A program made the position numbers and the translations under genes. The notes under the pieces are model-generated. The model did no database searches, was not told where the DNA came from, and saw nothing but the letters and a program-made list of their open reading frames with translations. Below, piece by piece: positions 1,459-38,500 of a DNA stretch of 64,000 bases. Origin of the DNA: Eledone cirrhosa (taxonomy: Eukaryota). The stretch's first letter is position 1; every line of letters begins with the position of its first letter. The stretch is taken from contig OZ024740.1 of assembly GCA_964016885.1 (NCBI GenBank), positions 286,378,001-286,442,000 on the forward strand, read 5' to 3'.

Positions 1459-1473
1459 TTAATCCACTAAAAG
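1459..1473 (+). CDS. Candidate 15-nt phase 1-1 NCX microexon, (x)NPLK
   Basis: ttattatttcag|TTAATCCACTAAAAG|gtaata; open in phase 1, matching the 7976 and 11505 exons. Confidence 0.4.
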
Positions 1474-1899
1474 GTAATAATGTAGATATGTTTCTTTGGG
1501 ATCAGGGAAACTTCTTTTTAAAATAGAAAAATACCATAGCTGTAACATTTATTCCATGTGTTATTTTAGGGGATTAAATTATAGTATTAAATATATTTTG
1601 TAATTTTTCTTTTAGCCAGTTAGATGATGTTAATGGTGATAATAGAAAATATTTTTGTCTTGTTTTTTATGTCTGCAGCTCTTACTATTTTCAATACTCT
1701 AAGAATGATGCCAACGTACTATTGAATAGTTTGAGATAATGAAGCCCATCAGAAAATAATTTAGTTTTACAGAATAACTTTTTAAAATGTATTATTTTTC
1801 TCTTTGACTGTTAAATTTAAATAATAAACAAGGAGAAAAAACAATGATTGTCAAATTAAGAAAATAAGTGAAAGGAAAGGGCCTGCACACTGAGTCACA

Positions 1900-32500: not shown

Positions 32501-35500
32501 GTTATGGCAATGCTCGAACACGAGTTTGCAGCCATCACATACATATATATATATATCATCATCATCACCGTTTTACCTTCTTCCACGCTAGCATGGGTTA
32601 GACAGGTTGTCCTGTTGTGGGCAGTGTCCAGTCGGCTGACCTTGTCTTGTTCATACGGGAACTGATTCTGGCTTGATTTCTACAGCTGGATGCCCTTCCT
32701 AACACCAACCTCATTTACAGTAAATCCTGGGTGCTTTTTTTTCCGTGGTGCCTAACGTCCACTTTACAGTGTGGGCTGGGTGCTTTTTTGCTGTGGGACC
32801 TCCACAATCACTTTCCGGTGGGAGGGGGTGGGGGCATATTGTCTATATGCTTCAGCTTGTACCCGTGGGATTCGGATCTTCTGTATTACTGCATGACGCC
32901 AGAGGTCGTGTGTCATCACTCTTGAGAGGTGCAATTGGGTAAGGTCGGCTTTTATCACCCCATCCCAGGTCTTCTTGGGTCTCCCCGCTCTGCGGCTTCC
33001 ATCGACCTTTAGTGCTCTACACCTTTTTATGCAGCTGTCATCCTTCATACGCATCACATGTCCATACCAACGCAACCTCCTCTCCTGCACACAGCATTTG
33101 ATTCCTCTTATGCTCAGTCTCTCTCTCAATTCGTTTATGCTTTGCCGTTCATGTATATTACTATTACACATCCATCGGAGCATGCAAGCTTCGTTTCTAT
33201 CTAATCTACGCAACACTTCTACAGACAGCGGCCCAGATCTCACTATCATGTATAATTGCTGTTTGTATGCATGCATCATACAATCTGCCTTTCATTTTGA
33301 GGGAAAAGTCTTTAGCAGCTAGCAATGGCAGTAGCTCCCTGAACTTCTTCCATCCCGTTCTTACCCTAGTTATTGTACTTCCCGAACACCCACCTCCACT
33401 GCTAATTCAGTCACCTAGTTAACAGAAGCTGTCTACTGTTTCTACAGAGCCCTCCCAGAGTTTGGTGGTGCTTGTTTCCTGTGGCCATTTGCTGCTTGCT
33501 GTCCCAGAACAGCTGCTACATATGAAGTCTACATTCTTGGTTAAGCTTTCTGAGTTCCCACTACATCACTTGTGTACCCATTGTTTGCATTTGAGGCAGA
33601 GGATGGAGTTCCTACCTACACCTTTCCTACATACTGAGCAAGGCCATTTCCCTGAGAGGATCTGGGTTCTGTTTTCTCATCTGCTTACGAGGACCTTAGT
33701 CTTTGTCAAGTTGACTTTGAAGCCCTTTCTTTCTAAGTCCCTGCCTCCATGTTTGGAATTTCTTCTCTAGTTCCACCATAGATTCATCTATAAGTGCGAG
33801 ATCATCCACATATAGGAGTTCCCATGGGCATCTGGTCTTAAACTCCTCTGTTATTGCCTGCAACACTATAATGAACAGGAGAGGGCTAAGAACAGAGCCC
33901 TGGTGGACACCGACCTGTATGCTAAATTCCTTGCTATAGTCATTGCTAACCCTAACTTTTCTGACTGCTCCTCTATACATGGCTTGTACAGCTTTCACAA
34001 GCCATTCATCTACTCCTAATTTTCTAAGAGCCTACCAGATTATAGTATGGGGGACTCTGTTGAAGGCTTTTTCCAGATTGACGAACGCCAGGTAGAGCGG
34101 CTTACTTTTAGCTAGGTAGTTTTCCTGTAACTGCCTCACAAGGAAGAGGGCATCAGTGGTGCCTTTTCCTGGTACAAACCCAAATTGCATCTCATCTAGT
34201 TTTACTCGGTCCCTATAACTCTTTCCGTTACTTTCATGACCTGGTCCAACAGCTTTATACCTCTATAGTTTTCTCTATCTAGTGCATGACCTTTACCCTT
34301 GTAGCAGTATGACACCCTCTAGTATTACCTGGTTAACAAACACGTATGGTTATGGTGTGACCTACCAACCCAGATGCCTTCAGCATCTCGGTAGCTATAC
34401 CCGGTTGACCAGTTGTCTTCATATCTTTGATTGCCTTATTTACTACGCTACTGCTGACTTGTACTGCTGGTCCCTCTATAGGGTCCACTTGGGGTAGGGT
34501 CTCTTTTTCCCATGTATTCTCCTCATTTAGTAATCTTTCATAATGGTTCTTCCATGCATCTTTCTTTATCATTCACCTTTATCATTCCAGATACACTTCT
34601 CTCCAATGACATCACAATTCTCTGACACACTGTCTCCCAATCTTGAACACCTCCTGTTTCTGGTCCTATATATATATATATATATATATATATATATATA
34701 TATATCAAAAGTATATATTGAGTTAGAAACTCAAAATAGTCACTTACAATTAAATAGCTCAAGGAAAAAAATGTTTCTGGGCCGTGTAATATTCAATATA
34801 ATAGAGATAAACATAGATATATACATGTATGTGTTCAAATATATATGCATATATATGGAGGCAGATGGCTTAGTGGTTAGAGCATTAACCTTGCAATCGA
34901 AAGGTTGTGAGTTCAATTCTCAGACCGGGTGATGTGTTGTTTCCTTGAACAAGACACTTTATTTCACATTGCTCCAGTTTACTCAGCTGTAGAAATAAGA
35001 TGATAGGGACTGGGGTCCCTATCATTCCACTGCAAAGTGGTCGTGGAGGTGCCACGGCAAAAAAAAAAGCACCTAGCCCACACTGTAAAGTGGACGTGTA
35101 GGCGCCACGGAAAAAAAGCACCCAGCACTTCCTGTAAATGAGGTTGGTGTTAGGAAGGGCATCCAGCTGTAGAAATCAAGCCAGAATCAGTTCCCATCCC
35201 ACCCTTGCAAGGAGGGAAAAGCGGATGTAAAATGATGATGATATACATATATGTCCCTTACGATTTGAACACATATATGTATATATCTGTGTTTATCTCT
35301 CTTTATTATATTGAATTATATATATATTTATATATATTATAGCTTCCTCTTCTCCCTTACTGGTATTTAAAGAAAATATGGTAAAATAAGTTCAGGAATT
35401 GAAGTTAAATAATCTAGCTCCAACAAAGAATGCTAAAATAATTTATTAGTATTTATTTTCTGTATAGTAAACCTTGATTAAAGATTGCGTAGTCATCTAC

Positions 35501-38500
35501 TCAATGAAAGATTGCGTAGTCATCTACTCAATGAAAGATTGCGTAGTCATTTACTCAATGAAAGATTGCGTAGTCATCTACTCAATGAAAGATTGCGTAG
35601 TCATCTACTCAATGAAAGATTGCGTAGTCATCTACTCAATGAAAGATTGCGTAGTCATCTACTCAATGAAAGATTGCGTAGTCATCTACTCAATGAAAGA
35701 TTGCGTAGTCATCTACTCAATGAAAGATTGCGTAGTCATCTACTCAATGAAAGATTGCGTAGTCATCTACTCAATGAAAGATTGCGTAGTCATCTACTCA
35801 ATGAAAGATTGCGTAGTCATCTACTCAATGAAAGATTGCGTAGTCATCTACTCAATGAAAGATTGCGTAGTCATCTACTCAATGAAAGATTGCGTAGTCA
35901 TCTACTCAATGAAAGATTGCGTAGTCATCTACTCAATGAAAGATTGCGTAGTCATCTACTCAATGAAAGATTGCGTAGTCATCTACTCAATGAAAGATTG
36001 CGTAGTCATCTACTCAATGAAAGATTGCGTAGTCATCTACTCAATGAAAGATTGCGTAGTCATCTACTCAATGAAAGATTGCGTAGTCATCTACTCAATG
36101 AAAGATTGCGTAGTCATCTACTCAATGAAAGATTGCGTAGTCATCTACTCAATGAAAGATTGCGTAGTCATCTACTCAATGAAAGATTGCGTAGTCATCT
36201 ACTCAATGAAAGAAAAGAACAATGCATTACCAGATTGCCTCCTCTCTTGTTTTCACCAAATTCTTAAATCATTCTTTTTTCAATTGTTAATGAAATTTTA
36301 TGATTCTTTATTATCATACACTTTTGTTTTGTTTTAATATTGTATCTTACATTAAAATACTCTTCATGTCAGCATGAGTGGAATCGTTCTGCAAATTCAT
36401 AATTTCACAATGTGTGTTTGTTATCAGTTTTGTTGACTAAAATAAAGTAATTACCTTACTGTGCCAGTACTGTTGTACAATCAATACTTAAAGTATTGAA
36501 CTAATATTAGTTTATACTACTCTGTTGGCTAATTCTTAATTATTTTTCTGATCTCACAGTACTGAAGTGGGTGTTTCAAATACTAATGTACACAAAACGT
36601 TGAAACATTAACTAAATGAACATTCAATACATGTGAGCTGAGTGTAAGATTTGTTTTCTGTAGAAAAAAAGTGATAATCATTTCAAAGTGTCAGCAAATG
36701 TCTCTTCTGACTGCAGAAGAGACATTTACCAAAGCATCAAAGTCATTGACACTTTTATCTTCAGACAATTATGTAAGCAGTACATAAGTTTGTGATGTCT
36801 TGAAAGGTTTATAGACCTCTGTTATTACCCATTTTTATGCAATCAAATTATATTCTTTATGGAAAGCAAATTTATTAATATGCCAAATGTGATAGGCCAT
36901 GAGTTTCAATCTTAGTTTGTATATTTTATCAGTAAATAAATATTTTATTCTTAGTGGTGTAGAAAATAACTTTCAGATGTTTAAATTACAGTAAACATTG
37001 TAATGTTGTTGGACCTCTATCTGTTCCAGCAAGTGTTCCAATTGTTCACAGAACAGCCATCTTTTAAAATTAACATGCAAATGGCTGAGCATTTTGGCCA
37101 GCTGAGTAGACTGTAGCAACATGAAATAAAGTGTCTTGCTCAAGGACACATATTGCCAGGAATGAAACTTATGATCGTGAGCCAAACACCCTAACTATTA
37201 AGCCACACATCTTTGCAAATATTGTTGTAAATGTGGATTTTTATAGAAACATGAGTTCATTTATTCTCCTTTGCTTTATCTAGCAGATATATACCAATCA
37301 GATCAGTGTTTTATTTAAGTGGATTCTCTTGGCACAACAGAATCTTTGAACACTATGAACATAACAAAATCTTTGAGAACCACCTGGTCTTATGAACAAA
37401 TCAATTATCTGAAATCTAATTGTTTGATGGTCTCTAATAGTATGAAACTTGATTTGTATTTGAAGCAATTACTACTAACTCAGAGGAATTTAGCTTATAT
37501 AAAACTTTTATATAAAATATTAATATTGTTAGTAAAAAAACAAATATCATTTCTTCATTCAGTTAAAACAAACACAGGATTGTGTATTTAATTAGTTATT
37601 GAACTTTGATGCAACAAATGCTCAGTTTGATATCTACTGAAAGATAAAATTTAATTTAATCTGACTTTAAAGAAAGGAATAATTATTCTTAAGTAAAATG
37701 TTGATGACATATGCCATTAACTCTGAATGTCCTGTACTACATAGAACAGTATTAGCAAGACATTCTTGTAAAGTAAAAAATAGCACTATGACTGCATCAC
37801 ATTAAAAATTGATCTTTACTTTAACTTACTGCAAATTTTCACAACAATCACATTAGTAAAGTTACTAAAGAGAATTTAATTAACAAACCTGATTTTAGAT
37901 ATTTTCTGCTAAACCATTATAGGATATTTAGTCTTTTCAACTTGCTAACTCAGAAGTTTGTCCCATCTGAGACTTGTATGAATTGTGGGAGATGTTAAGT
38001 GTTAGTTCATCCTTTCTTATTCATAGTAACTGTAAAAGGGGATTAGAGATTACATTGTGGGTTTTGGGAAGTTTGAGGGACTTGGTAAAATATTTTTTTG
38101 GCACAGTTCTATTTTGTTGATGGAGAAATTGTACAGGTAAGTGAATTCTCAGTAGGAATTTTTTTTTACCTATACTGGCATTCTTCATACACCATATATC
38201 CTCCTCTTAACACATGCAAATGATGGAACCTTCTTTTTTTTTTAATTGCCTTTTTCTTTATATTTTGGTTCAGCATTGAATGTTTTCAGAACAAATTTCA
38301 AGTGGTGCATGGATTTCTATATCACAGTATATCATGCATATTTTAACAATATGATATTAGCATGTATGCAAATTTGCATGCTATGATTTAAACTTTTTAT
38401 CAAGCACCATGCACTTCATGTCATAATACCACTTAACTCAATATTTTTTTCCTACTAACGCCTTGTTAATTATTTCTTTTAAAAGTCTATTTCCTTTTGA

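Follow-up and report, generated by a model that had tools for sequence, protein, structure and literature searches.

Predicted microexons between TM5 and CBD1 in a non-canonical sodium/calcium exchanger gene of Eledone cirrhosa

In the sodium/calcium exchangers (NCX) of the SLC8 family small alternative exons diversify the cytosolic loop, and those of Drosophila Calx are located in CBD2. Here we examine a stretch of Eledone cirrhosa DNA (hereinafter the window: 64,000 nucleotides (nt), positions 286378001-286442000 of OZ024740.1, the contig C1 of a 3.0-Gb genome, G000), which codes for an NCX with a set of candidate microexons at a different place in that loop. The exons A–F of vertebrate NCX1 and NCX3 and those of Drosophila CALX1.1/1.2 are likewise small, and the proteins share an overall fold; however, these exons fall within CBD2, FG loop included, where they alter Ca2+/Na+ regulation, whereas those of the window gene fall between TM5 and CBD1. 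Published alternative small exons of NCX are located in CBD2 (PMC2408596, PMC9820601, PMC2217150; here and below, papers are cited for their accessible parts), alternative Calx exons are also mentioned in 10.1101/2023.03.23.533999, and the functional work on NCX splicing consulted here concerns the CBD2 of canonical exchangers. The TM5–CBD1 region is one large exon in tetrapod NCX1/3 (PMC2408596) and in the canonical NCX gene of E. cirrhosa itself (on C6). A preliminary description of the window was thus right to set its splice region, upstream of CBD1, apart from the CBD2 region of NCX1/3, and the same distinction holds against the canonical NCX of the same animal group.

A described cephalopod exchanger is the squid NCX-SQ1 (O02196; PMC2217150), which has the same alpha-repeat motifs as the window gene. 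It is a distinct paralog that retains XIP, a DDEEY CBD2 loop and the TMH2 cysteine, and sequencing of nine clones from reverse-transcription PCR gave no other splice variants (PMC2217150); unlike these nine clones, the Octopus isoforms of the C6 gene vary in the CBD2 loop. A non-vertebrate clade like that of the window gene is represented by the oyster Cgi1/2/4 subfamily (PMC6987452) and possibly the coral NCXB (PMC6209159), with no loop microexons described in the accessible parts of these papers. The former reports a second NCX subfamily in molluscs/lophotrochozoans, which vertebrates do not have, and doubts the exchange activity of its non-canonical members; the latter presents NCXB as divergent and of unclear function. 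A literature search, with most subscription journals outside its coverage, found no published description of the exons discussed here. The word "exchanger" is absent from the accessible main text of a bioRxiv study of tissue-specific splicing in 20 species including O. bimaculoides (10.64898/2026.09.05.749416), the supplements of which may list them. The exons are already present in automated Octopus annotations. From sequence comparison, we regard them as a microexon cluster that is real and conserved, at a site not yet described and in a little-studied subfamily of NCX.

Optional exons at two junctions of the loop

The gene runs on the + strand and has 11 constitutive coding exons, two of which are located upstream of the window. 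With all optional segments skipped, it encodes an open frame of 821 residues. Identity is 84% with the short forms of Octopus vulgaris and O. bimaculoides, 83% with Argonauta and 42% with NCX-SQ1. The preliminary description had listed five segments with AG/GT ends, each a multiple of three and stop-free in the phase of its intron, and this proved correct throughout: they have CAG acceptors and GT donors and measure 15, 15, 24, 15 and 30 nt in order. Two are of phase 1 and precede the constitutive exon 11505-11578, namely A2 (1459-1473, in-phase peptide VNPLK) and A3 (7976-7990, DKELG). Three are of phase 0 and lie in the 27.5-kb intron after exon 14238-14405: B1 (17927-17950, IHSGLAAK), B2 (29852-29866, LTNPQ) and the candidate B3 (38107-38136). 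The list missed a further 15-nt segment, A1 (APQKQ; OZ024740.1:286377122-286377136, L002:9122-9136), about 870 bases upstream of the window. All lie on the + strand, and the frame is kept in each of the 64 inclusion combinations of the listed five and A1.

A search with exon 14238-14405 retrieved annotated isoforms of three Octopus species and Argonauta, 26 of them full-length (one fragment excluded; 15 of the 16 members of the largest cluster listed). The "sodium/calcium exchanger 3" sets of RefSeq/GenBank for O. bimaculoides (e.g., XP_014786863.1, XP_052822922.1), O. sinensis (e.g., XP_036358402.1, XP_029634584.1) and O. vulgaris (CAI9720798.1-CAI9720804.1) represent the orthologous gene, and the optional peptides of the octopod isoforms are confined to the two matching junctions: site A after YEIAM and site B after FKE. 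At site A, APEAK is present in 15 of the 26 isoforms, VDAPK in 4 (all O. sinensis) and DKQLGK/DKQLSK in 13; at site B, AGSRHRK is present in 4 (all O. bimaculoides), IRDDLSAK/IQDELSAK in 18 and LDNPQ in 14. The peptides of the window gene pair with these as APQKQ with APEAK, DKELG with DKQLGK, IHSGLAAK with IRDDLSAK/IQDELSAK and LTNPQ with LDNPQ, while VNPLK is a weak match to VDAPK. When every in-frame AG–GT segment of each intron was scored (BLOSUM) against the Octopus optional peptides, A1 matched APEAK better than any other of 43 in-frame 15-nt segments, and A3, B1 and B2 scored 23, 17 and 21 as against 10, 4 and 11 for the next segment, respectively. A2 agrees with O. sinensis VDAPK in length, phase and order, sharing the top score in a tie. 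The order A1, A2, A3, B1, B2 along the gene is that of the annotated Octopus peptides, and for all five both inclusion and skipping are seen among the orthologues (drawn from the three Octopus species and the sister lineage discussed below, with the A2 counterpart in O. sinensis). The Octopus sets differ from the window gene in that A3 is 18 nt there and 15 nt here, AGSRHRK is restricted to O. bimaculoides, and none has an insert like B3. No counterpart of AGSRHRK emerged from the 86 in-frame 21-nt segments of intron B, with none of the six best matches placed between 14405 and 17927.

On its + strand, AG|GTAAG occurs exactly three times in the 27.5-kb intron, and, as the preliminary description had pointed out, each closes a listed segment. 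The motif occurs 7 times on the + and 8 times on the − strand of the window, and 1.7 are expected per 27.5 kb (9 in 144 kb of antisense sequence). However, none of those nine antisense motifs closes a 15–30-nt in-frame segment with a YAG acceptor, and only 5 of 105 broader antisense donors do so; hence, three of three is beyond chance, and the microexon set as a whole exceeds it too. As a second control, splice-site matrices trained solely on the ten constitutive introns of the gene were applied to 1,735 antisense segments. A1, A3, B1 and B2 score 17.4–21.0 as compared to an antisense maximum of 15.0, with B1 having the highest splice score of its intron. The scores of A2 (11.9) and B3 (11.6) are equalled or beaten by 11 and 13 of the antisense controls, respectively, and 2.1 and 2.5 such segments are expected per 27.5 kb, i.e., they are at background level.

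Thus, of the five segments listed, three are solid (A3, B1 and B2, by both orthology and scores), one is probable (A2) and one is unsupported (B3). Taken together, A1, A3, B1 and B2 are likely cassette microexons that keep the frame of a non-canonical NCX paralog. A2, which matches VDAPK but has weak splice sites, is a probable fifth. For B3 the two controls conflict: it is rare when approached from its donor (0.03–0.08 expected per intron) and common by total score. It combines a strong CAG|GTAAGT donor with a weak acceptor lacking a branch-point-like motif, and its peptide pieces FYFVD, YFVDGE and DGEIVQ are absent from all 486 proteins compared. That it is a microexon is therefore doubtful, a chance or rarely used splice site being more likely. 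We rejected a repeat-derived origin for it, as it is single-copy in the genome, a weak argument given that the search skips common words. The same intron has another 30-nt in-frame segment, 25609-25638, with a strong pyrimidine tract upstream and a high score with the gene-trained matrices, which is also single-copy in the genome. It was rejected as a further microexon on account of its GTG|GTAGAT donor, a rival out-of-frame donor at 25626 and the lack of any orthologue found.

Comparable inserts are present in contigs of transcript size that our tree places as the sister group of the octopods and that, by this position, are probably from a squid or cuttlefish. Their proteins are about 75% identical overall and have B1 and B2 as in octopods, with LYGDLSIK and LDNPQ together at site B (P0302/P0305) and either ETQKPQ or EDQFS at site A. 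Tiny as they are, B1 and B2 appear to have been retained across this long divergence. Of the 19 members of the sister cluster 15 were listed, and 11 of these are full-length. Of 117 sister contigs, 54 skip all inserts, 39 have an A3-like insert only, 12 an A1-like insert only, 11 combine A1, B1 and B2, and one A1 and A3. Accordingly, B1 and B2 are present in 11 of the 24 with an A1-like insert and in none of the 93 without one, the contigs not being independent. Similarly, B2 without B1 is found in none of the 26 octopod isoforms. These patterns suggest that a small number of coupled isoforms, varying from sample to sample, are made, rather than free combinations. Microexon use therefore looks coupled, and the "combinatorial" programme of the preliminary description was an overstatement.

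A second NCX subfamily and the age of the site-A intron

The genome search recovered three NCX genes. The canonical one on C6 (L012:508-2280, G000:C6:48.34 Mb, − strand) encodes a normal XIP within an open frame of 590 aa and shares 82% identity with NCX-SQ1; in O. sinensis and O. vulgaris, the variation among its isoforms falls in the CBD2 loop (A, DTDSAHS). In a quick tree, in which the placements of Rhodelphis, Adineta and Intoshia are unreliable, the orthologues of the window gene form a separate non-canonical clade with molluscs, annelids, a nemertean, a sea urchin (echinoderm) and an acorn worm (hemichordate), and they stay outside the canonical group, which is split off by a branch with 100% SH-aLRT support. 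Hence, orthology of the window gene to NCX-SQ1 was rejected, given their 42% identity, the separate clade and the much closer C6 gene. Its sequence places it in SLC8: its orthologues have two PF01699 domains, and it encodes the alpha-repeat motifs GTSAPE, GSAAFN, GTSMPD and GSNSVN, which align with those of NCX-SQ1 and human NCX1. The TM5–TM6 loop has the tandem CBD1–CBD2 arrangement (two PF03160 domains), with the structural model matching known CBD structures.

The regulatory parts, however, depart from the canonical exchangers. XIP is degenerate, the canonical RRLLNKYLSKKYRASKQKG of NCX-SQ1 being replaced by RKCC..xKSTGIYEIAM; PF16494 matches NCX-SQ1 but not P0027 or P0004, and the XIP sheet is not seen in the AlphaFold models. 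Thus, "XIP-to-CBD1 linker", as the preliminary description termed the spliced region, is a misnomer for this paralog. The acidic CBD2 EF loop (DDEEYEK) and the TMH2 palmitoylation cysteine are absent, with YDTKTAEKDE and ATAS in the Octopus orthologue and FDTA|SAEKDE and ATAA in the window gene. The CBD2 FG loop is minimal and without extension, as had been stated, and the octopod isoforms of the orthologues show no CBD2/FG-loop variation. The window gene presumably belongs to the second subfamily of PMC6987452. Directly after TM5 the gene encodes a Cys-Cys pair (DRKCC, in an upstream exon at L002 ~5660-5714), and most mollusc members have C or CC there; one might speculate that it is a substitute lipidation site for the missing TMH2 cysteine.

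The suggestion that the array is cephalopod-specific did not survive a wider survey. Optional site-A inserts are annotated in 11 of the 12 bivalve/gastropod isoform groups examined (Patella, Haliotis, Littorina, Babylonia, Crassostrea/Magallana, Saccostrea, Mercenaria and Ruditapes have them), and the Biomphalaria isoforms vary at this site through a short deletion. Site-B inserts are found in Haliotis (LADRK, 5 aa) and C. virginica (a single Q). In several isoforms of Mercenaria and Ruditapes (P0197, P0338, P0324-P0326) six residues are missing directly after site B, resembling the use of an alternative acceptor; together with the C. virginica residue, this points to variation at the site-B junction among bivalves as well. 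The inserts have no evident sequence similarity between mollusc classes. A non-canonical paralog 6.6 Mb away (L011:1456-2166, G000:C1:293.01 Mb, − strand) has a donor at the identical site-A position, and hence the site-A intron likely predates that duplication. By these comparisons the site-A splice site is pan-molluscan, and the peptides are, so far, coleoid.

Proposed role of the inserts and rival explanations

AlphaFold models of the longest O. sinensis and shortest O. vulgaris forms (pTM 0.64 and 0.62) place the junctions in the loop, the long form matching human NCX1 (8SGJ) with a Foldseek E-value of 1.8e-51. Site A is modeled with low confidence as a coil that joins TM5 to a bundle of three helices (pLDDT<50: long form, 226-269; short form, 224-253), and its inserts are 5–16 aa long and rich in Lys, Glu and Pro. 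Site B falls midway in a short helix (EAFKE|LHEDLK), modeled as 331-344 with B1 and 315-325 without it; in all four versions seen, B1 repeats the [LI]xxxL pattern at the start of the next exon. In human NCX1 the XIP region, 219-248, forms a beta-sheet joining the hub that locks the inactivated state (PMC10550945), and phospholemman binds the PASKT stretch (PMC4964977). Site A aligns with the end of the former and beside the latter, in a register uncertain by several residues.

Based on these models, we posit that tissue-dependent and partly coupled inclusion of the microexons lengthens two linkers of the cytosolic loop while leaving the calcium-binding sites unchanged. The site-A inserts would extend the disordered tether by which TM5 is joined to the helical bundle. 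At site B, B1 would supply a replacement [LI]xxxL half-helix, with IQDELSAK completing the helix, and B2 a turn containing Pro; this arrangement would account for the lack of isoforms with B2 but not B1. B1 itself may have arisen as a duplicate of the first part of the exon that follows. The output might be altered partner binding, membrane sorting or modest kinetic tuning of CBD1–CBD2 tethering; these are the most likely outputs because the NCX1 exons act through the canonical XIP and the acidic CBD2 loop, neither of which the paralog has. We favor, as probable, a reading in which tether length and docking surface are tuned in a tissue-dependent manner, with effects on sorting, partners or kinetics. 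For its mechanism the nearest analogy is the splice site A of PMCA, where optional inserts in a Ca2+-extruding transporter are linked to apical location (PMC6987452), the differences being that PMCA is an unrelated protein family with larger inserts.

Several points weigh against this reading. Inclusion in E. cirrhosa is deduced from its orthologues, whose annotated isoforms are automated models with putative long-range exon combinations. AlphaFold confidence is about 45–70 around site B, and the low pLDDT at site A stems in part from poor alignment depth. Human NCX1 with a deletion of 341-365, positionally equivalent to site B, keeps wild-type-like Ca2+/Na+ regulation (PMC10550945). Furthermore, the lack of peptide conservation between mollusc classes and the length variation within cephalopods (as in A3) are what a weakly constrained linker would lead one to expect. 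The NCX1 deletion and the lack of peptide conservation suit an explanation in which the exons are real and spliced, but near neutral, being repeatedly gained and lost in a permissive disordered linker with long flanking introns, and the lineage-restricted AGSRHRK and VDAPK cassettes are in keeping with it. Yet LDNPQ/LTNPQ and the 8-residue pattern of B1 are kept across octopods and the sister lineage, strong splice sites are retained, and the dominant isoforms vary between assemblies; we therefore deem near neutrality unlikely.

A narrower version of tissue-dependent tuning would make the exons targets of the neuronal eMIC (Srrm234) programme, yielding a neuron-specific exchanger. They share with such microexons their short frame-preserving form (15–24 nt), their location in an ion-transport gene (fly eMIC targets are enriched in ion channels) and some of the described cis features, i.e., a long AG-exclusion zone, UGC near the 3′ site and a strong CUAAY branch point (PMC8797185): AG-free zones extend over 100 nt at A3 and 103 nt at B1, CTAAY is found at A1, A3 (as CTAAC) and B2 (CTAAC at −35), and TGC at −10 of B2. 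However, UGC near the 3′ site is found at B2 only, no TGC occurs within 60 nt of A1, A2, A3 or B3, the constitutive exon 41886 likewise has a 100-nt AG-free zone and TGC, and the bivalve/gastropod site-A inserts, at 8–23 aa and more, mostly exceed typical neural microexons. By this analogy neural control is possible, though we consider the eMIC version the lesser prospect. Far less probable is that the supported exons are constitutively included in E. cirrhosa or are decayed remnants: the background-level sites of A2 and B3 would fit, but inclusion and skipping occur in all three Octopus species and the sister lineage, and the four main exons retain strong sites and open frames. That all five are chance AG…GT segments in an AT-rich intron is scarcely credible; although AG|GTAAG alone is at chance frequency, peptide orthology holds in order and phase, and none of the 1,735 controls reaches A1, A3, B1 or B2. 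Judged by orthology, chance is refuted for A3, B1 and B2, and is plausible solely for B3 and partly for A2.

Returning to tissue-dependent tuning, the interest of the locus lies in the XIP-to-CBD1 linker, which is disordered in the NCX1 structure: natural 5–8-residue inserts at two points are ready-made probes of its importance, and they fall in a subfamily whose activity is doubted, yet with intact transport motifs. Unrelated small exons recurring at one junction across molluscs also offer a clean case for repeated exon gain. This significance is tempered by the prior annotation of the exons and by a tissue pattern and function that are conjectural. More tentatively still, an XIP-less NCX subfamily lost by vertebrates may have moved its splice-regulated control from CBD2 to the TM5–CBD1 tethers, with the old site-A intron independently gaining cassettes in each mollusc class. 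Coleoids would run a coupled two-site programme (A1+B1+B2, A3 or none), possibly neuronal, that sets the location or partners of the exchanger. We offer this wider scenario as a possibility, and would sooner expect parts of it to fail.

Remaining features of the gene and the window

The nine constitutive exons in the window, all on the + strand, begin with 11505-11578, which follows site A and was placed by tblastn with O. sinensis isoform X1 and a boundary check, and 14238-14405, which encodes the helical bundle with a WYRINA motif and whose 3′ end is site B. The end of the linker and the start of CBD1 are encoded by 41886-42079, the remainder of the loop by 46262-46488 (CBD1), 49977-50209 (CBD2), 51628-51733 (CBD2 strands F–G with the minimal FG loop) and 54021-54199 (CH2/TMH region). 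Then come 55855-56184 (TM6 to the alpha-2 repeat) and the last coding exon, 58016-58258 (TM9-10, TAA stop). In the intron after 56184, about 53 bases (56578-56631) copy the preceding coding exon near-exactly, without obvious splice sites, which looks like a recent local duplication.

The long intron has a 2-kb AT microsatellite (21365-23401) and 27 copies of a 27-nt unit with 99% match (35480-36213). Broken transposon-like frames are scattered over the introns and the downstream region (~9100-10150, 18300-19150, 30100-31730, 32700-34600, 43200-45000, 60000-62200 and 63300-64000), those at ~30100-31730 forming an inverted pair; by eye, we take these frames to be reverse-transcriptase-like, GIY-YIG-like and transposase-like.

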